Below are positions 3,376-55,650 of a DNA stretch of 64,000 bases, piece by piece. Origin of the DNA: an uncultured Bacilli bacterium (GTDB lineage Bacteria; Bacillota_I; Bacilli_A; RF39; UBA660); the NCBI GenBank assembly GCA_947631515.1, contig CANRLP010000001.1, positions 223 through 64,222 of the forward strand, written 5' to 3'. Numbering within the stretch: position 1 is the stretch's first letter; each line of letters opens with the position of its first letter. A program made the translations under genes and the position numbers. A model generated the notes under the pieces. That model worked only from the letters and a program-made list of their open reading frames with translations, was not told the DNA's origin and did not search any database.

Positions 3376-3603
3376 TTAATCTTGTATTCTTTTAGGCCTA
3401 ACATCAAGCTCTAACGTTTCATTATTAGTTCGAGATAATTTATTATCAATTCCTAATTGATTTAGTTGATTATGCATGTATTCACTAATCTTCAAAGTTA
3501 AATCTTTTTCTGTAATCCCGTTAGCTATTGTGCCGGGGTCTTCTCCTCCATGGCCACTGTCAATTACAACCTTTTTAGTTACTCTATCATCCATGTTTAT
3601 CAC
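3376..3603 (-). pseudogene. truncated N-acetylmuramoyl-L-alanine amidase (Amidase_3) fragment, 75 aa
   Basis: VIDSGHGGEDPG motif and following residues align to the N-terminal ~75 aa of CwlD-type amidases (compare the intact paralog at 6816-7475). The frame stops after ...ELDVRPKRIQD, where a ~200-aa catalytic domain should continue. Confidence 0.6.
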
Positions 3604-3739: not shown

Positions 3740-4828
3740 TTAACTAGCTGCTTCACTAAGTTCTATTGTAACTGTTTTTAATTCATTATTTCGATAAAAG
3801 GAAATGTTAACCTTATCACCAATATTATGTTTATATAATTGATATTTTAAATAAGCTAAACTACTAACATCATTATCTTCTATTTTAACGATTACATCGC
3901 CATTTTTTAAACCAGCTTTATCTGCAGGGCTATTTTTTTCAACACTTTCTATATATACGCCACTATCAATATCACTATTTAAAATATTCAAATCTGATAA
4001 ATTTATCATAGAAATTCCTAAATAAGGTCTTTCAATTTTTTTACCACTTTCTAAACTTTCTGCATATTTTAAAGCATCTTCAATAGGTATAGCAAATCCC
4101 ATACCTTCAATTGAACTACTGGCTAGTTTCATTGAAGTAATACCAATTATTTGACCATTAGAATTAGCTAAAGGTCCACCACTATTTCCTGAATTTATAG
4201 CAGCATCTGTTTGTAATACACTCATAACCCAATCGCTAACAGAAGAGTTTGTTAAACTTACCTCAACCAAACGATCTTTACCAGATAAAATCCCTCTAGT
4301 AACACTCCAAGAATAAGCACTACTATCTATAGGAGCTCCAACAGCAAATACTGTATCTCCAAGTCGAGTGGTCGAATTATCGCCAATTTCTGCTACACTA
4401 ATAATATTTTTACTATCTACAGCAAGAACTGCAATATCAGCATATTTATCACTACCTACAATTGTTGCTTCAACAGAAGATTGATTGGTAAATACTACTT
4501 TAACACTTGAACCACTTTCTATAACATGGTTATTAGTTAATATATAAGCTTTACTTCCCGCATCTTTATAAACAAAACCTGTTCCTGTAGCATATAAATT
4601 ACTGCCTTTATATGTCTCAACCGTAACAACGGCATCATAAACCTTTTCAACGGCATCCGCAATACCGGTTTCAGTTACTGTTACATCTTTAACTGTTTTA
4701 GTTACATTATTAGTTACTGTAGTTGGGTAATATCTAACAAGAGCAAACATTGCTAAAGCTCCAACGAAAAAAGCAATTAACAAAACTACTCCTGATTTCA
4801 TTTTATTTTCTGATTTATATTCTTTCAT
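3740..4828 (-). CDS. htrA: HtrA/DegP-family serine protease (TM anchor, trypsin domain, PDZ)
   Basis: N-terminal TM helix, GNSGGPL catalytic serine motif, C-terminal PDZ-like region. Likely ATG at 4828 with AAAGGA RBS. The ORF-track start at 4837 is TTG. Confidence 0.8.
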   Translation of the reverse strand: MKEYKSENKMKSGVVLLIAFFVGALAMFALVRYYPTTVTNNVTKTVKDVTVTETGIADAVEKVYDAVVTVETYKGSNLYATGTGFVYKDAGSKAYILTNNHVIESGSSVKVVFTNQSSVEATIVGSDKYADIAVLAVDSKNIISVAEIGDNSTTRLGDTVFAVGAPIDSSAYSWSVTRGILSGKDRLVEVSLTNSSVSDWVMSVLQTDAAINSGNSGGPLANSNGQIIGITSMKLASSSIEGMGFAIPIEDALKYAESLESGKKIERPYLGISMINLSDLNILNSDIDSGVYIESVEKNSPADKAGLKNGDVIVKIEDNDVSSLAYLKYQLYKHNIGDKVNISFYRNNELKTVTIELSEAAS

Positions 4829-4829
4829 C

Positions 4830-5759
4830 TTAATCAATCCTTTCTATATCCATAAAATTAGCAGGGAATCCCATTTTATCCATAACTTTTCCAATGCTAA
4901 TACTTTTTAACATTCCTTCTAACATACTAACCTCATAATCAATTTCTTTAATCATTTCTGAAAAATCATCTTTACGTAACATTTGTTTTAAAATAATTAT
5001 CAACGAAAATAAATCATCTTTACCATAAATATATTCACCATCCATTTTCGGAATACCTAAACGTTCATGATATTTTGTGTCATTAATTTGGCGTTGAACA
5101 CGATGGTCAAATAAAATTTCTTCATGAGCACATAAATTTCGATAATTAGATAATATTGGTAAATAAAGAGCTAAATCATCAGCATCAACATTAAAAAAAT
5201 TGGCAATTTCTTTTTGATCATTTGGTTTCAAAATAATATATAATTCCCCTACTATTCCAAAAGATAATACTTTTACAGCAATCCAAAGAGGAATATAACC
5301 ATAATTCATTTGATAATGCGCTGTGGCTGTATGAATGGAGGCATTAGCTCTTATTTGGCGTTTCATTTTTTTGATCAAATCATTTACCTGCCGATATTTA
5401 TCATTACTTCGATTAAAATTGGCTGGATTTAAATAATTACTTTCTTTAATTCCATAAGTTCGAGATAAATGATAGGAAATAATACTTTTTAAATTATTTT
5501 CAATTATCAATAAATTTTTAAATAAAATATTACGTATATGACGATCAAAATTAAATACCCCATATAATTCTCGAAAAGTTGAACCCGTAATAAAATGCTT
5601 TTCAGCTGGTGATTTCATAAATAAAGAGCGATACCCATTTATAAAGAAATAATTTTCACGTAAAAGTATCTCTTTAGTTAATGTTTCATCTTCGACAATA
5701 AGACCCTTATTTTTTAATATTTCCACCTGTTCATCTAACGTTTTGAATATCTTATTCAT
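4830..5759 (-). CDS. Abi_2 (AbiD/AbiF-like) abortive infection protein
   Basis: N-terminal FKTLDEQVEILKNKGLIVEDE...YFFINGYRSLF and central IPLWIAVKVLSFGIVGELY match the AbiD/AbiF family consensus. The stop abuts the htrA RBS. Confidence 0.7.
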   Translation of the reverse strand: MNKIFKTLDEQVEILKNKGLIVEDETLTKEILLRENYFFINGYRSLFMKSPAEKHFITGSTFRELYGVFNFDRHIRNILFKNLLIIENNLKSIISYHLSRTYGIKESNYLNPANFNRSNDKYRQVNDLIKKMKRQIRANASIHTATAHYQMNYGYIPLWIAVKVLSFGIVGELYIILKPNDQKEIANFFNVDADDLALYLPILSNYRNLCAHEEILFDHRVQRQINDTKYHERLGIPKMDGEYIYGKDDLFSLIIILKQMLRKDDFSEMIKEIDYEVSMLEGMLKSISIGKVMDKMGFPANFMDIERID

Positions 5760-5861
5760 ATGATCACCTTATTGTTTGATTATATCACATCAACTATCTG
5801 TTAGTATATATTTTTTAAATGATGTTTATGTTATAATATTGTGAAAGGATTGTGAAATTTT

Positions 5862-6827
5862 ATGCCTCTAATAACTACTCATAATTATTTTGCAAATGAT
5901 GTTTTTAATATAATTCCTAAAAAGATTAGTCAACAATTCTCTGATAAAAAAGGGGTATATGAATTGTTCGCTCAAGGTTTTGATTTATTTCAATTTTATG
6001 ATTTTTTTCGTCTTAAAAGAGAAAATTTATTAGATTATTGTCACAATCATTATACCGATCTATATTTTTTAAATTATATAAAAAATTTAAAAAAGTTAAA
6101 TTATCTTCAAAATCCTGAATTTTTAGCAGCTTTATATGGTCATTTAACTCACTATGTTCTAGATAGTAATTGCCACCCTTATATTGTTTATAAAACTGGT
6201 ATATGGAATCCTAAATTAAAAGAAACTCACAAATACAATGGATTACACTCTAAAATGGAAATGCAAATTGATGCTTATTTTTATGAACAAAAAAATCATA
6301 AGCCTTTTGAAAACTTTAAAATTCATAAATACTTAATTACCAAAGATAAACTTAGTAAAGAATTAATTAACCATTTGAATACTGTTTACTTAGAAACTTT
6401 CTCTATTAAAAATGGAGGTAAAAAATATAATATTGGCAAACGAAATATGTATTATTCTTACAAATTTTTAATTGAAGATAAAACTGGTATTAAAACTAAT
6501 TTTTATAAATTTATAGATATTTTTACACCTCACACCAACAAATTTCAAAATTATAGTGCTCATATAAAAGAAATTGACCAAAGCATTTTTAATGAAAATC
6601 ATGATTTTTGGTATCATCCATGGCTTGATAACGCAAAGTACAATACATCTTTTTTTGATATTTATAATAAAGCTTTAGAGGAAGCTAAAAATTTAATAAT
6701 TAAAACTGACGAATTTTTACATGATAAAATAACTGAAAAAGAATATTATACTTACTTACAAGATAAATCATATTTAACCGGATTATCATGGAAGAAAAAA
6801 GGTAAAATTAAACATTTAGAATTTTAA
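5862..6827 (+). CDS. zinc-dependent phospholipase C family protein (PF00882-like), cytoplasmic
   Basis: N-terminal MPLITTHNYF and GHLTHYVLDSNCHPY (HY..D...P.H) His/Asp clusters typical of the Zn-PLC / P1-nuclease fold. Convergent with cwlD and overlapping it by 12 nt. Confidence 0.5.
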   Translation: MPLITTHNYFANDVFNIIPKKISQQFSDKKGVYELFAQGFDLFQFYDFFRLKRENLLDYCHNHYTDLYFLNYIKNLKKLNYLQNPEFLAALYGHLTHYVLDSNCHPYIVYKTGIWNPKLKETHKYNGLHSKMEMQIDAYFYEQKNHKPFENFKIHKYLITKDKLSKELINHLNTVYLETFSIKNGGKKYNIGKRNMYYSYKFLIEDKTGIKTNFYKFIDIFTPHTNKFQNYSAHIKEIDQSIFNENHDFWYHPWLDNAKYNTSFFDIYNKALEEAKNLIIKTDEFLHDKITEKEYYTYLQDKSYLTGLSWKKKGKIKHLEF

Positions 6828-7475
6828 ACTTCCAATCGCTCGAGCAATTATTTTGGCTAATTTTTGTTGATAATCTTTAGTTATCAACAACGCTCTTTCG
6901 CGAGGATTTGATAAAAAACCACATTCTATCAACACGCCAGGAATATTTAACTTATCGTACATATAAGTTTTGATAGGTATCTTTTTTATTTCACGATCTG
7001 ATTTTAAAGACTTATTTAAGGCATTTTGAATTTGTTTGGCAATATCTTCATTACTTGTTTTTTTATTGTTATAAAAAACTTGAGGTCCAAAATAACTAGA
7101 ATCTTCTAAATAATTTAAATGAATTGAAAAATAGTAATTAGCTTTACTTTCATTAATTATTTTTATTCGATTGTCAAAATCGCTTTTTTTACGCATATAA
7201 GCATTAGGTTTAGATAAATCATAATCGCCACTACGAGTTAATATAACACTAGCTCCTAATTTACTTAATTCTTTTTCTAGCTCTAAAACTATTGCCAAAT
7301 TAATATCTTTTTCATAAATGTTTTTATACATAGTGCCAGGGTCGAGCCCACCATGACCACTATCTAAAATAATTACTTTTCCTATTAAGGGAAGACTTGC
7401 AAAAACAATTTTATTTGCCAAAAAACAAATTGCTACTAAAAAAAGAATGCATACTTTTATTAAATAGTTTTTCAT
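6816..7475 (-). CDS. cwlD: germination-specific N-acetylmuramoyl-L-alanine amidase CwlD-like
   Basis: Signal/TM N-terminus, ILDSGHGGLDPG motif, position downstream of rpsI as in Bacillus. Confidence 0.8.
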   Translation of the reverse strand: MKNYLIKVCILFLVAICFLANKIVFASLPLIGKVIILDSGHGGLDPGTMYKNIYEKDINLAIVLELEKELSKLGASVILTRSGDYDLSKPNAYMRKKSDFDNRIKIINESKANYYFSIHLNYLEDSSYFGPQVFYNNKKTSNEDIAKQIQNALNKSLKSDREIKKIPIKTYMYDKLNIPGVLIECGFLSNPRERALLITKDYQQKLAKIIARAIGSLKF

Positions 7476-16899: not shown

Positions 16900-17185
16900 C
16901 CTCTTTTCTATTTACCATTATTTTTATTTAATTGCATTACAAACATAGTTCCCATTCTAAAAAATAAAAAAAATCATAAACTAAGGGCGAAAAAACCGCG
17001 GTACCACCTTAATTCATGATTTTATCATGCACTTTAAATTCGTAACGAGAATAACTCGATTTAACTCCAGAACCATCTTCATATTTCATAATCTACTTGT
17101 TTTCATCAACCACAAGCTTTCTATAAGATTATTAAAATATTACTCTTTCTTTCTCCGTTAATTATTTGTATAGTAACACAAAAAA
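16900..17185 (-). promoter_or_regulatory. T-box riboswitch leader of metG
   Basis: Minus-strand AATTAAGGTGGTACCGCGG (revcomp of 16996-17013) matches the T-box consensus AATTAGGGTGGTACCGCG. ~300-nt leader with AGAGA-like and AUG-containing Stem I candidates, and a T-rich tract after the motif. Confidence 0.8.
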
Positions 17186-27151: not shown

Positions 27152-27159
27152 CACCATAA

Positions 27160-27250
27160 AAAAAGTGCACACGAATAGGGATTGATATGGCTGCTGTCTT
27201 CCAACTCTGACCAGATTACAATATATCCGTTGCACTTTGTAATGATAACA
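27160..27250 (-). ncRNA. ffs: signal recognition particle RNA (small 4.5S type)
   Basis: Minus-strand CUGGUCAGAGUUGGAAGACAGCAGCCA matches SRP domain IV (CAGGUCAGGUCCGGAAGGAAGCAGCC). Closing helix AAAGUGCA/UGCACUUU. Position between gyrA and tadA-dnaX, as scr is in Bacillus. Confidence 0.7.
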
Positions 27251-42568: not shown

Positions 42569-43924
42569 ATGAATATGGATAAAAATATTCAAGAAATCCC
42601 AATTGAGGATATAATTCCTAATAGATTTCAACCAAGACTTGCATTCAATGAAGAAGGATTGAATGAACTTTCTGATTCCATAAAACAACATGGAATAATT
42701 CAACCCCTTGTTGTACGTAAACTTGGCGATAAATATGAAATAATTGCTGGAGAAAGAAGATATAAAGCTGCTACTCAAGCCGGATTAACTAAAGTGCCTG
42801 CTATAATTTCTGATATAGATGATAATAAAAGCGCCGAGGTAGCTTTAGTAGAAAATATTCAAAGAAGAAATTTAACAGCTATTGAAGAAGCTAAATCATA
42901 TAAAAATTTATTAGACAGAGGTTATTTAACTCAAGAACAATTAGCAGCAAAGATGGGAGTATCTCAATCTTCAATTGCAAATAAATTAAGACTATTAAAC
43001 TTAGCTCCAGAAGTTCAAGATGCCTTATTAAATGAAAAAATATCAGAACGTCATGCTCGAGCATTGTTAAGTTTAGATGATATGGAAGAGCAAAAAAAAT
43101 GGTTACAAAAAATAATTGATGAACGTATGACTGTTCGGCAATTAGATATGGAATTAAAAAAATATAAAGAAGATCCTGATGACGAAGGAAATGATATACC
43201 TTTAGTTAATATAAATCCCGATATAGATAGCATTTTAAATAGTGCAGAAGATATTAATGTTACTAGAGAAGCACACGATGTAGCTAGTATGTTAATGCCG
43301 GACCAAGCCATGAATCAAAATGAAGTTACTGACCAAAATTTGCCACCAGAATCACCTTCAAAAATGCCTAATAAATTCTTTAATTTTTTAGAAGATGAAC
43401 AAGCAAATATGGATATTGGTGAACCTGATGAGATATTTACGAATTTTACTCCAACTTCTTTAGAAGAATCAGAACCAAAAATTCCAGAAAATACTATGCA
43501 ATCTGTAGAAGTATTAGATGATTTAGATAATATCGATACTGATGATAAGCCTGAAGATACGACACCATCAACACCTCAAGAATTACCGGAAGAACCACAA
43601 AATGTTGAGTCTTTTGAAAATATATTTGAATCGACACCAAACTTAGAAAATAATTCTACGGAAATTGTAAACGAACCAATAAGTCAACCAGTAGTAAAAG
43701 AAAATACTTTTGTAGATCCTATGGATAGTGTTGTAAAATTAGAACCAGATTATGAAGAAAAACAAGAAGAATTAGCTGGCACGGATTTAAAAAGTGCAAT
43801 AAATACTATTAGAGAAACAATTGATGCGCTAAATAAAAAAGGATTTACAATAGAAATGGAAGAAGCCGATTTAGAAGATTTGTATCATATAACAATTAAA
43901 ATCGATAAAAACCAAGAAGAGTAA
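42569..43924 (+). CDS. ParB/Noc-like nucleoid partition/occlusion protein with long acidic disordered insert
   Basis: ParB N-terminal box IAGERRYKAA, HTH (QEQLAAKMGVSQSSIANKLRLL). A ~180-aa D/E/P-rich low-complexity region follows, then a short C-terminal domain. No parA downstream. Confidence 0.8.
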   Translation: MNMDKNIQEIPIEDIIPNRFQPRLAFNEEGLNELSDSIKQHGIIQPLVVRKLGDKYEIIAGERRYKAATQAGLTKVPAIISDIDDNKSAEVALVENIQRRNLTAIEEAKSYKNLLDRGYLTQEQLAAKMGVSQSSIANKLRLLNLAPEVQDALLNEKISERHARALLSLDDMEEQKKWLQKIIDERMTVRQLDMELKKYKEDPDDEGNDIPLVNINPDIDSILNSAEDINVTREAHDVASMLMPDQAMNQNEVTDQNLPPESPSKMPNKFFNFLEDEQANMDIGEPDEIFTNFTPTSLEESEPKIPENTMQSVEVLDDLDNIDTDDKPEDTTPSTPQELPEEPQNVESFENIFESTPNLENNSTEIVNEPISQPVVKENTFVDPMDSVVKLEPDYEEKQEELAGTDLKSAINTIRETIDALNKKGFTIEMEEADLEDLYHITIKIDKNQEE

Positions 43925-43996
43925 TCTTCTTTTTTTGGTAATTGAAAATGGCAAGTAAATGAATTATAATTAAATTAATAATAGAGGAGGATTTAT

Positions 43997-45311
43997 ATGA
44001 AGAAAGCAAAAAATAACCTCCCAACCAGACTAACTCTGGGGGGGTATATCAAATAAGAAAGAAGACCTAGAGTTAGAAAAGTTTACTAAGAACAAAAAAA
44101 GAAAATTTATTTTAATAGGATTAATATTAGGAATAAGCGTAACTATTGGTGGAATATTCTTATATAAAAGTTATGCCTATTATGAAAATGAAAAAGAGTA
44201 TAACGTAATAAAAGGAATAATACCCGATTTTTCGTATGATGTGAAGTTTGCCATAACCGTGGATGATGAAACAAAAGAATCAATCCCAACAGAGCCAAAA
44301 GATGCTAACAAATCAAATTATTATAAAGTAACGGCTACTTGTGATAATGGTATAAAAGCAGAATGGGATTATAATGCCTGGAACTTAAAAGTAGAAGATA
44401 TTCAAAAAGGAACAAAATGTAAATTAGCATTTAATAGTACCTTAACCGAAGCAGATTACAAAAATTACATTGACGCAGGAGTTGCATATAGAAGAAATAC
44501 ATATAGAGGCAAAGATATTACCAGTAAATTAAAAGATGGTAGTTTATTCACAGAAATAGAGAGTGGTCATTTCGACGATATATTTGTTGGAGATTACATA
44601 ACAAGTTCAAGTGGCCAAAAAGATTTAAGTAACAAAACAGTAGTATGGTTAATAGCTGATCTAGATAATTATTTATATACTGGAGACGGAGGTATTGTGT
44701 TAAATAAGCATCATGCGACAATAATACCAGCAATTCCTTTAATGAAAGCTTCAATGAATTCCACGAATACAACTGTAGGAGGATATGCCGGAAGTGAAAT
44801 GGTAGGGTATGAAGTAGACGAAAATGGAAAAGCTACCCAAGAGAAAAAAGAAGAAGGAGGAACATTAGATACAGTATTAAGTAAATATATAGAGCCTGAT
44901 TTTGGAGCTAGTAATCCTAGTGGTGATAAACAAAATCATATAATAGAATATCGAAATATAATAACTGTTCAAGTGGATAAAACAAGAACAAATCGATTTG
45001 GACTTACCGATGGTACAAGCTCTAATTTTGAATGGTATAATAGAAAATTAGATTTCATGAGTGAAATGAATGTGTATGGAGGAATCATTTGGTCATCATC
45101 AGGCAGAGATATCGGCATAGACAATATGCAATATGCCATATTTCAACTAAAGCCAGGTTTTAGAGATTCTTACGGAACTTATAGATTTCATTACTGGTTA
45201 AAAGATGTAGCCAAAATGAATAATTTTGCGTATTCCGACGCCTATGGTGTGTCGGGCGTCTACGGTGCGAATGGCCTTATTGGAGTCCGCCCCAGATTCT
45301 TAATCGGTTAA
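43997..45311 (+). CDS. hypothetical membrane-anchored (type II) secreted protein; reading frame interrupted at an A7 homopolymer (44093-44099)
   Basis: ATG 43997 with GAGGAGG RBS encodes MKKAKNNLPTRLTLGGISNKKEDLELEKFTKNKK in frame 2. The frame-0 ORF opens at 44076, encodes TM helix FILIGLILGISVTIGGIFLY, and continues 44241-45311. Deleting one A in the A7 tract fuses the two. No in-frame ATG exists for the downstream part. Confidence 0.55.
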
Positions 45312-45427
45312 CATTTTCTTTTTGAGCAAATGTTTTTTTTAGTTGTTAAACATTGCTATTTTAATAAAAATAACTTTTTTATAAAACTTAAGCGTGTTAT
45401 AATTAGAATAATGGAAGAGGGTTAAAC

Positions 45428-46963
45428 ATGACTAAGTATGATGCTATATTTATTGGGGCCAATAATAGTAATTTAATAGCGGCATTAAGACTAGCTAAAA
45501 ATGGCTATAAAGTATTAATGTTAGAAAAGAATCATATTCCTGGTGGATGTTCTACTAGTTTTATTAGAGGACGTTTTGAATTTGATGCTTCTTTACAAGA
45601 ATTATATGAATATGGATCAACAGAGGAACCAGGTTTATTATATAAATTATTTCAAAGTTTGGATTTAAATGATCAGATACGTTTTGCAGATATCCCTAAT
45701 GCTTTTCATGTTTATGTTAGTTCTAATCATGAAAATTATAAATTGCCTTTTGGGCTACGTAATTTTATTGATAAGATGGAAGAATATGTAAGTGATAGTA
45801 GAGAGTCTTTAGAAAAGTTCTTTCAATTAGGTTTAGAGTGCCGAAATGCTTTAAAATATATTGGTAAACATAAAGCAAATACTCGTTACGAAGTTTTATT
45901 GAGTGATTATCCACATTTTATGAAAATAGCAAATTTATCAGTTAGTACAGTTTTGAATGCTATAAATATGCCTCGTAAAGCTCAAGAAATATTAGCTGCC
46001 AATTGGAGTTATTTTGGCAGTCCGATTGATACTTTATCTTTTGTCCAATTTTCTTCCACTTTTTATTCATACATTGCTAGGGGAACGAAGATACCTCGTA
46101 AAACTAGTTTTGAGATTAGTTTAGTTTTAGCTGAAAATATAGTTGATAATGGTGGATATATTAAGTACTTATCAACAGTTGAAGAAATTTTATTTGAAAA
46201 TGACAAAGTAAGTGGAGTTAAGCTTAGTAATGGGGATATTTATGAAGCACCATATATTATTTGTGGCGTATCTCCTAATGAAGTTTATGGCAAAATGATA
46301 CCATCTAAATATATTCCTAAAAATGCTCTTAAACTTACTAATTCACGGGTTTTAGGAGGTAGAGGTTTTGCTATTTATTTAGGTTTAAATCAAAGTGCTA
46401 AAGAAATAGGATTGAATGATTATTCTTATATAATTACTAATACTTTGGATAGTCGTAAAGAATATGAAAAAATGGGAACAACGAATGTAGAACATTTTAG
46501 AGTATCAGTTATCAACAATGCAAATATTGCAGCATCTCCTAAAAATACATGTATTATGCAATTTTCTACTTTTTTTACTAATGATTGTTTTATGAAACTA
46601 GCTAATCCAAGTAATTATTATGAATTAAAAGAACAAATTGCCAATCGTTTAATTACTCTTTTTGAAGATATGACAGGAATTATTATTAAACCTTTTATTG
46701 AAGAAATTGAGATTTCTTCTCCAGAGACTTTTGCCAGGTATACTAATCAACCTGAAGGGACAATTTATGGCTTTAAAGCAACAGGTTTAGATAATCTTTT
46801 ACCACGAATGATTAATGAAGAAAATGAACAATTTATTGATAATTTGAAATTTAATAGTGGTTTTGGCACTTATTTAAGTAGTTATGCAACGACATATTTG
46901 ACGGGAAATGAATTAGCCATGAATATCCTAGCTAGTAGAGAAGGGGTGGATGCAAATGAATAA
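45428..46963 (+). CDS. FAD-dependent oxidoreductase, phytoene-desaturase (CrtI)/amine-oxidase family
   Basis: N-terminal dinucleotide-binding DAIFIGANNSNLIAALRLAKNGYKVLMLEKNHIPGG. ~510 aa, typical for the CrtI family. Confidence 0.65.
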   Translation: MTKYDAIFIGANNSNLIAALRLAKNGYKVLMLEKNHIPGGCSTSFIRGRFEFDASLQELYEYGSTEEPGLLYKLFQSLDLNDQIRFADIPNAFHVYVSSNHENYKLPFGLRNFIDKMEEYVSDSRESLEKFFQLGLECRNALKYIGKHKANTRYEVLLSDYPHFMKIANLSVSTVLNAINMPRKAQEILAANWSYFGSPIDTLSFVQFSSTFYSYIARGTKIPRKTSFEISLVLAENIVDNGGYIKYLSTVEEILFENDKVSGVKLSNGDIYEAPYIICGVSPNEVYGKMIPSKYIPKNALKLTNSRVLGGRGFAIYLGLNQSAKEIGLNDYSYIITNTLDSRKEYEKMGTTNVEHFRVSVINNANIAASPKNTCIMQFSTFFTNDCFMKLANPSNYYELKEQIANRLITLFEDMTGIIIKPFIEEIEISSPETFARYTNQPEGTIYGFKATGLDNLLPRMINEENEQFIDNLKFNSGFGTYLSSYATTYLTGNELAMNILASREGVDANE

Positions 46964-54968: not shown

Positions 54969-55301
54969 ATGTATAGTGAAAAAGTTACTTTAACCAAAGA
55001 AGATATCTTGAATAAAGATTTTAAGGTTGATGCAAGAGGATATCGTCCTCAAGAAGTAGATGATTTTTTAGATACAATTATTGATGATTATACAGCTTAT
55101 ACTACCATTATTAGAAGACAGGAAAATGAAATCCGGGCTTTAACAGAAGATAATATTAAATTAAAACAAGAATATCATAAACTTCGGAGTCGTTTAGAAG
55201 CGGCAGAAGATGCTTCTTCTAATTCAAGTCCTGTTAATAATGTTGATTTGTTAAGAAGAATTAGTCAACTTGAAAAAATTGTATTTGGAAAAAATGAATA
55301 A
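54969..55301 (+). CDS. gpsB: cell-cycle protein GpsB (DivIVA-domain)
   Basis: LTKEDILNKDFKVDARGYRPQEVDDFLD matches the GpsB N-terminus. Followed by rnpB, as in B. subtilis. Confidence 0.88.
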   Translation: MYSEKVTLTKEDILNKDFKVDARGYRPQEVDDFLDTIIDDYTAYTTIIRRQENEIRALTEDNIKLKQEYHKLRSRLEAAEDASSNSSPVNNVDLLRRISQLEKIVFGKNE

Positions 55302-55650
55302 TTTGTAGGCAAATGCTGCATTTTTAAAAAAATGTAGAGGAAAGTCCATGCTCACACAGTCTGTGATGATTGTAGTGTTCGTGCTTAGGGAAAAAATAAC
55401 CTAAGGCAAAAAATTTTTTTGACGGCGGAAAATTTACCTTAAATGGTAATAGTATCCATAAAGTGCCAAAGAGACGAGCTTGCTTGGAAACGAGCAAGGA
55501 TGGAACGTGGTAAACCCCGCGAGTGAGAAACCCAAAATTTGGTAGGGGAGTTTTTGCTGATAAGAAGAATGAAGCAAAAAAGAGTAATCTAGATAAATAT
55601 TTGCCACACGAATTTTTCGTGTACAGAACATGGCTTATTCAGGTTATTTA
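55300..55650 (+). ncRNA. rnpB: RNase P RNA, type B
   Basis: GAGGAAAGTCCATGCTCACAC...GTGTTCGTGC and AGTGCCA..GACGA....GGAACG.GGTAAACCCC.CGAG.GAGAAACCCAAA.TTGGTAGGGGA plus ACAGAACATGGCTTA match the B. subtilis M1 RNA. T-run at 55650-55659. Confidence 0.88.

Follow-up and report, generated by a model that had tools for sequence, protein, structure and literature searches.

A stretch of 64,000 nucleotides from an uncultured Bacilli bacterium (contig CANRLP010000001.1 of assembly GCA_947631515.1; hereafter, the window) contains a gene for a predicted membrane-anchored protein that is split into two reading frames at a run of seven G. Our analysis indicates that this gene is probably a phase-variable locus that is switched by slipped-strand mispairing at its poly-G tract and was caught in the OFF state. 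A poly-G contingency locus is of a well-known kind, whereas the lectin-fold family that carries this one is undescribed: in the literature we found no paper on the gene family, nor on a diversity-generating retroelement (DGR) combined with slipped-strand switching within one family. The region 43800-45500 was read and translated in the three forward frames, and the locus is made up of the following features.

43942-43970, forward strand: putative sigma-70-like promoter TTGAAA-17 nt-TATAAT, 27 nt upstream of the ATG, agreeing with 11 of 12 consensus positions and assigned by consensus match only
43984-43990, forward strand: Shine-Dalgarno (SD) sequence GAGGAGG, read directly from the sequence, with a 6-nt spacer to the ATG
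43997-44056, forward strand: frame A by translation, with start ATG at 43997-43999, 19 codons (MKKAKNNLPTRLTLGGYIK) and TAA at 44054-44056
44034-45311, forward strand: frame B by translation, the rest of the protein, with 425 stop-free codons and TAA at 45309-45311
44038-44044, forward strand: G7 homopolymer in codons 14-16, the frameshift site and putative slipped-strand switch
44094-44100, forward strand: A7 run inside frame B (codons AAC AAA AAA AGA), not the site of the disruption
44106-44165, forward strand: predicted signal-anchor transmembrane (TM) helix FILIGLILGISVTIGGIFLY, preceded by KNKKRK, with N-in, type II topology
44193-44444, forward strand: predicted membrane-proximal beta-sandwich-like domain, frame-B residues ~54-137, from the secondary structure of the model
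44448-45308, forward strand: predicted DUF6273/C-type-lectin-like ligand-binding domain, frame-B residues ~139-425
45204-45290, forward strand: hypervariable, GC-rich segment like a DGR variable region (VR), just before the invariant C-terminus VRPRFLIG, with the highest column entropy of the family alignment

Frame B opens at 44034, directly after a TAA at 44031-44033, and lies in +1 relative to frame A. The two frames coexist only at 44034-44053, and the G7 falls inside that interval. Deletion of one G or addition of two creates a single open reading frame (ORF) of 437 aa with the N-terminus MKKAKNNLPTRLTLGGISNKKEDLELEKFTKNKKRKFILIGLILGISVTIGGIFLYKSY, so that tract length sets the frame: G6 or G9 gives the full ORF (ON), and G7 gives a stop after 19 codons. 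The first ATG, GTG or TTG of frame B is the GTG at 44241, which has no SD and lies downstream of the membrane anchor. Because the downstream frame thus lacks a start codon before the anchor, the gene would be OFF at G7, and this allele is predicted to be a true null unless frameshifting occurs. Public protein sets carry the gene as a GTG-started fragment of 356 aa (P0001; here and below, P numbers label homologous proteins and L001-L098 homologous DNA loci). No second copy of the gene was found in the 64-kb window. An alternative genetic code (TGA = Trp) was rejected as the cause of the split, since both relevant stops are TAA and the long ORFs are intact in table 11.

An initial annotation of this DNA had already placed the ATG at 43997 behind its GAGGAGG, recognised the signal-anchor helix in the long frame, and pointed out that no in-frame ATG precedes the reported GTG, all of which agrees with our reading; indeed, neither ATG, GTG nor TTG occurs before 44241. 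Its general idea, a membrane or surface gene interrupted at a homopolymer by phase variation, pseudogenisation or a sequencing indel, is also borne out by the comparative data below, with the correction that the tract is the G7 and not an A7. The frame assignment behind it, however, proved wrong on re-translation in both frame lengths and tract. The first frame had been given 56 codons rather than 19, and the continuing ORF, correctly assigned to the +1 frame with its end at 45311, had been opened at 44076 rather than at 44034. The frames had further been said to overlap across an A7 at 44093-44099, a run that really occupies 44094-44100, 38 nt past the frame-A stop. Since the A7 lies beyond that stop, deletion of an A cannot join the frames, and slippage at the A7 was discarded as a model; the size of ~438 aa proposed for the product after such a deletion comes close to the 437 aa obtained by deleting one G, but only by coincidence.

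How unusual is a run of seven G in such a genome? The window has a GC content of 27%, and the G7 is its only run of G or C of six or more. Independent and identically distributed bases would lead one to expect 0.03 G runs of at least seven; observed A runs of this length number 67, and A or T runs 133. GGG makes up 6.6% of the Gly codons, and GGG-GGG occurs in none of the 61 Gly-Gly dicodons of long ORFs. The G tract is kept against codon bias.

A protein search returned 412 relatives of the window gene, and 116 loci were confirmed in species-representative genomes. The best 80 of these 116 sit in nine 'uncultured Bacilli/Tenericutes' metagenome-assembled genomes (MAGs) from rabbit and mouse gut, with at least 33 among these 80 in Lapin-002 bin30, at least 18 in Lapin-005 bin63, at least 11 in MGBC121705, at least 8 in Lapin-005 bin86 and at least 5 in MGBC128534. 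Over 405 kb of loci at 29% GC, there are 61 runs of seven or more G or C; 54 of them fall within the 5' part of a family coding sequence, and 49 of those 54 are exactly G10. Some tracts, like that of the window gene, fall in the cytoplasmic tail; others coincide with the GG of the TM helix, a position at which the window gene reads GGT GGA. Every family copy is equipped with an SD and an ATG of its own, and promoter-like elements were seen upstream of L044 and L024, the copies read there. Measured from the SD-ATG, the tract is in frame in nine cases (L012, L022/L037, L053, L059a, L024, L044, L086 and L088) and exceeds the in-frame length by one G (OFF) in about 45; six members have no tract at all. 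Copies also occur in tandem pairs (L003, L011, L029, L059) and many stand at contig ends, as might be expected if a conserved 5' block breaks assemblies.

The initial annotation had suggested a comparison with orthologues; here, homologues can be compared at the homologous site itself. Frame A shares clear homology over its first 16 residues with three N-termini that are intact, those of L044 (MKEKRKRILPTRVSLGG; MKEKRKRILPTRVSLGGILGKKKDPELERFTKNKK; G6, in frame), L086/P0010 and L024/P0019, and DNA alignment puts the tracts of the window gene and of these three loci at the same site. There, L044 and L024 are ON with G6, L086 is ON with G10, and other paralogues range from G4 to G10, those of MGBC121705 having G10 or G4. 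L044 and L024, both G6 and in frame, have the two N-termini most similar to that of the window gene, and the G7 is one insertion away from their ON length. All out-of-frame tracts of the family are in the +1 state (G10, G7, G4, G4AG5, G3AG6), and the -1 state occurs in none of ~55 complete tracts; within L001-L098, G8 and G11 were seen only at contig edges.

Might the uniform G10 reflect a collapse of paralogues during assembly? This explanation is partly valid for Lapin-005 bin63, where a block of 35+10+21 nt (~66 nt) is identical among paralogues and the G10 calls may not be independent. It fails for Lapin-002 bin30, where the flanks of paralogues diverge within 2-4 nt of the tract; because these flanks differ, the G10 lengths must have been assembled independently.

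In the MGBC121705-type clade (L042, L046, L050, L059, L038, L080, L089-L098), AT precedes the tract; followed by G(3n+1), it forms an additional ATG whose frame is that of the anchor, with products beginning MGGGLLETNN... or MGGLLETNN.... This state is possibly one of low expression rather than fully OFF. The window tract is not preceded by AT and hence has no second start. Runs of G10, G9 and C8 were also noticed outside family genes (L041:313-322, L073:2942-2951, L029:2685-2693, L015:4958-4965); the one in L041, ATGgaaaaaattgcaaatG10, resembles another gene with a 5' poly-G, and there may be further contingency loci in these MAGs.

In this family, tract length varies from one population to another, ON alleles are found in nature alongside OFF alleles, and some copies decay. 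Protein clusters at 90% identity contain length variants that can be traced to the tract. At one locus (ftsH-X-gmk), three samples have G7 and four assemblies G10, although the DNA shows 99.2% identity over 1.75 kb. At another (CSD-X-S30AE), one sample has the ON state, with G9 and a product of 406 aa starting at the SD-ATG (L088, P0177), and two samples have the OFF state G3AG6 (L089, L090), the second with an additional frameshift at an A run (470-520). In one further sample of this locus (L091), a deletion between two 'tttggttatga' microhomologies (480-520) has removed the entire 5' end together with the anchor. Elsewhere, a copy at L069:2850-3080 contains multiple frameshifts, and the tracts of L016 and L019 are interrupted. 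For the window locus itself, a search of a metagenome contig collection with the exact flanking DNA gave no matches, and a protein-guided metagenome scan returned only five short fragments.

How might the tract control the gene? We envision that slipped-strand mispairing during replication alters the number of G. At G6 (or G9), translation from the ATG next to the ribosome-binding site would continue as far as the stop at 45311, and the protein would be made and displayed; at G7, as assembled, translation would end after 19 codons and the gene would be OFF. The product would be a single type II protein of 437 aa, composed of a short, Lys-rich cytoplasmic tail, the signal-anchor helix, the beta domain and a lectin-like head. 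With a 5' G tract in most family copies, each cell would display few of many heads, which would differ mainly in their C-terminal binding loop. Because promoter, SD and ATG are intact, every invariant residue is retained, and 425 codons have stayed free of stops although the genome is AT-rich, the inactivation is in all likelihood recent or reversible. The window G7 would probably switch back and forth in its own population. Host immunity, phage or variation in an adhesion target might be the selective agent. In Campylobacter jejuni, the modal length of poly-G tracts is set by the mutational pattern, and switching rates are high (PMC3401435).

Several observations weigh against such a switch. 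The G7 at 44038-44044 is known from an assembled consensus and not from reads, and it is shorter, and thus less mutable, than the family-typical G10. Clearly decaying copies (L016, L019, L089, L090, L091, L069) make a fixed pseudogene a real alternative. The DNA-level comparison of tracts excludes the five closest homologues, P0002-P0006, which are possibly paralogues from the same genome. Finally, all OFF copies are +1 and none is -1, which symmetric slippage does not predict. This bias may result from a mutational mode at G9 to G10 like that of C. jejuni (PMC3401435), from the second ATG of AT+G(3n+1) in the MGBC121705 clade, which is in frame with the anchor, or from some +1 frameshifting on rare GGG codons.

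Is the split gene simply a recently fixed pseudogene, in which one G was inserted into an in-frame G6 and which is now decaying rather than switching? We regard this as unlikely. It would take a single insertion from the G6 found in L044 and L024, and decay is evident in other members of the family, with the multiple frameshifts of L069, the 5' deletion of L091, the second frameshift of L090 and the interrupted tracts of L016 and L019; moreover, the window holds a single copy, and G7 is a comparatively slow tract. Yet 425 downstream codons have stayed free of stops at 27% GC, with invariant residues, promoter and SD intact, and at a homologous locus some samples have G7 and others G10, so that such tract lengths do change. 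An OFF state and a young pseudogene differ only in reversibility. A different objection is that the true sequence is G6, or a mixture of G6 and G7, and that the consensus has one G too many. Consensus indels occur most often at homopolymers, the contig apparently stems from a metagenome assembly (P0001 lies on an NCBI contig of 68 kb, and the relatives are MAGs), and the closest N-termini are G6. Such an error is nevertheless improbable. Short-read consensus normally calls G7 runs correctly, and in assemblies made independently in several studies the family is most often in the +1 state. The window has 72 open frames of at least 100 codons, and six of them have a start-less leader of at least 25 codons; the split gene, with a leader of 69 codons, is the only one of the six to exceed 115 codons, whereas the remaining five, with their short length of 103-115 codons, look spurious. 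Because no other window frame of at least 200 codons has a long start-less leader despite the 133 A/T runs of seven or more, the assembly is not generally prone to frameshifts.

The +1 bias raises the alternative that the protein is expressed without mutation, by +1 ribosomal frameshifting on GGG or by RNA-polymerase slippage that drops one G from the run, and that the +1 state is a normal low-expression configuration. None of the ~55 complete tracts is -1, all out-of-frame ones are +1 even at G7 and G4, GGG is rare, and a P-site tRNA-Gly on GGG could conceivably re-pair perfectly one base downstream; this strict pattern may hint at leaky expression, to which the second in-frame ATG of the MGBC121705 clade could add. 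We nonetheless consider expression of this kind, like an assembly error, improbable. In-frame alleles exist (L012, L022, L024, L044, L053, L086, L088), so that shifting is not obligatory; the window tract, with no AT before it, has no second start; and a G9 to G10 mutational mode like that of C. jejuni also explains the +1 excess (PMC3401435). A CCTCC(C) motif is conserved 15-30 nt upstream of the G run (window 44017-44044; L044, L086, Lapin clades). However, the CCUCCC/GGGGGG hairpin that it could form with the run (minimum free energy -14.7 kcal/mol, z = -1.3) is not better than in shuffled sequences, pairing with the SD is equally possible, and no stimulatory element is demonstrated. A gene with a programmed +1 frameshift, like prfB, was rejected on account of the in-frame alleles at the homologous site (L024, L044, L086, L088) and of the non-significant hairpin.

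What would be displayed in the ON state? The topology was deduced from the positive-inside rule, and the protein is presumably surface-exposed. A Mycoplasma-type surface lipoprotein would have a signal peptide with a lipobox Cys; here the N-terminus is a predicted TM signal-anchor, a lipobox is absent, and no Cys occurs among the first 100 residues. An AlphaFold2 model built from 120 homologues (mean predicted local distance difference test, pLDDT, 87.4; predicted template modelling score, pTM, 0.80) consists of a long TM helix covering residues 21-51, a small beta domain and a large alpha/beta head; pLDDT is 48-59 for residues 41-70 and 84-95 in the beta domain from residue 71 onward. A Foldseek comparison with viral models found DUF6273 and receptor-binding proteins with E values down to 5.5e-22, and the ectodomain is accordingly modelled as a DUF6273/C-type-lectin-like fold. 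In the literature, DUF6273 is a C-type-lectin-like domain found in phage receptor-binding proteins that are diversified by DGRs (PMC10743442), and it forms the N-domain of an IgA protease from Thomasclavelia ramosa (PDB 9qa6; PMC12402451).

At the level of sequence, the family profile PF19789 gave no match to the window protein at E up to 1, and 20 of the 120 homologues match it weakly (best E 6e-6). Searches of Pfam, NCBIfam and PHROGs with the repaired 437-aa protein yielded nothing significant, and a profile search against PDB sequences gave no sequence-level match to any chain. A HMMER search against a library returned 2271 representatives at E <=1e-3 and only 31 at E <=1e-30; the head domain is widespread, but only a small clade has the full architecture. 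Frame B keeps every family-invariant residue.

The most variable part of the family alignment comprises the ~27 residues before the invariant VRPRFLIG, and the members without a tract are nearly identical except in this segment. In the window gene, 45234-45293 forms an island of 63% GC (gene 32%, window 27%), and V-R-P is spelled GTC-CGC-CCC, each codon with a usage of ~5%. The composition of this island resembles that of a DGR variable region and its initiation of mutagenic homing (IMH) site. A complete DGR is present in MGBC121705 (contig CAJTYF010000005; L015:3004-6986), and its target is a tract-less family member. It is composed of the VR at ~4017-4117, an accessory ORF at 4191-4754 and a reverse transcriptase (RT) at 5799-6986 with the motifs IGSQISQ (GxxxSQ) and YMDD, and it has, unusually, three tandem copies that resemble a template repeat (TR; 4865-4965, 5147-5244, 5424-5524), with an identical sequence on the 3' side of each. 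The VR differs from the third TR at 10 of 22 adenines and at 2 of 73 other bases, and it corresponds to the same segment as window 45204-45290.

Could the window gene itself be the target of such an element? Within the 64 kb, no repeat longer than 32 nt of the 3' 412 nt of the gene and no RT-like ORF was found, and a DGR acting in cis was rejected. The 3' end of the window gene does not fit the L015 TRs (21 of 59 non-A positions mismatch), and neither do the poly-G paralogues of MGBC121705. We tentatively entertain the idea, which we rate somewhat short of an even chance, that gut Bacilli diversify one family of lectin-fold receptors within a single genome by a DGR copy, here with three tandem TRs, together with up to 30 or more poly-G-gated paralogues that differ mainly in the same C-terminal binding loop, and that the modal G10 is deliberately out of frame. 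One or a few of many heads would then be displayed per cell, in the manner of Neisseria Opa proteins but on the scaffold of a DGR target. The window gene would then be a gated copy, its VR-like 3' end being either a relic or the target of a remote DGR.

From a comparative perspective, a close parallel is with the poly-G/C contingency genes of C. jejuni, which likewise belong to an AT-rich genome, have a G run of at least seven early in the coding sequence of a surface-related gene, switch ON and OFF by tract length modulo 3, and occur at many loci per genome. Homopolymer switches also operate in Haemophilus, Neisseria and Helicobacter. The tracts of C. jejuni are found in unrelated glycosylation, capsule and restriction-modification genes, whereas here nearly all of them belong to one paralogous family; the host here is an uncultured spore-forming gut Firmicute, in which switching is proposed from sequence comparison. 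The mode is narrow in both, at G9 in C. jejuni (PMC3401435) and at G10 in the gut Bacilli family.

The Opa proteins of Neisseria form a multigene family, each copy of which is switched by CTCTT repeats in the region coding for the leader peptide. They resemble the gut Bacilli family, as it is proposed to work, in being paralogous surface adhesins that have their own promoters and a slippery repeat in the N-terminal export or anchor region, with a few of many copies expressed independently and stochastically. In contrast, the Opa repeat is a pentamer and the product an outer-membrane beta-barrel, whereas here the repeat is a mononucleotide G and the product would be a type II membrane-anchored lectin fold in a Gram-positive-type bacterium, with copies that can exceed 30 per genome. 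The Vlp, Vsa and VlhA proteins of Mycoplasma are lipoproteins, the repeats of which (poly-A, GAA) usually lie in promoters. Like the system proposed here, they are large families of surface proteins switched by simple repeats, in small AT-rich genomes of Firmicute descent, but the window gene has no lipobox, its tract is coding, and its organism has sporulation genes. DGR targets with a C-type-lectin fold include Mtd of a Bordetella phage, TvpA of Treponema and the DUF6273 'tentaclins'; the window gene differs in that it would be diversified by a poly-G switch and paralogy rather than by retro-mutagenesis, there being no TR or RT within 64 kb. Unlike the T. ramosa IgA protease, the window protein has no M64 peptidase domain, and it has an N-terminal TM anchor rather than a sortase motif.

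The gene lies between a ParB-like ORF (42569-43924) and an ORF resembling an FAD oxidoreductase (45428-46963). ORF translations and gene order suggest that the window covers the region of the replication origin, with a dnaA-like ORF at ~34.7-36.1 kb and a Jag/MnmE/MnmG/RsmG/ParB-like order upstream of the gene. Sporulation genes (spoVG, yabP/Q-like and yabG-like) are found at ~11.4-13.2 kb, together with the following ordinary housekeeping RNAs elsewhere in the window.

55301-55641, forward strand: RNase P RNA, class B
16980-17164, reverse strand: T-box leader
27156-27241, reverse strand: small signal recognition particle (SRP) RNA

Because of these sporulation genes and of the class B RNase P, T-box and SRP RNAs, the host is a spore-forming low-GC Firmicute and not a mollicute with an altered code. 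Two further observations concern the left part of the window. On the reverse strand at 3376-3603, a 75-aa ORF resembles, by eye, only the N-terminal part of N-acetylmuramoyl-L-alanine amidase and is perhaps a truncated gene, and at 1-2334, also on the reverse strand, there is an open frame that extends for at least 778 codons past the left edge of the window and is for this reason absent from the list of ORFs.

For annotation, the locus is best recorded as one frameshifted or phase-variable gene of 437 aa, and not as a cytoplasmic 'hypothetical protein' of 356 aa starting from the GTG at 44241. Copies of the family may also explain the frequent assembly breaks in these MAGs. A slipped-strand switch at this site would add an uncultured, spore-forming, AT-rich lineage of gut Firmicutes to the bacteria with poly-G contingency loci, and it would link poly-G switching to the DUF6273/C-type-lectin scaffold, which is known from DGR targets, phage receptor-binding proteins and the IgA protease. 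The part worth following lies at the level of the family, in a poly-G-gated repertoire on the scaffold of a DGR target. If the idea of such a repertoire is true, these commensals would stochastically vary a ligand-binding surface that faces host or phage, which would bear on IgA evasion, phage resistance and colonisation.

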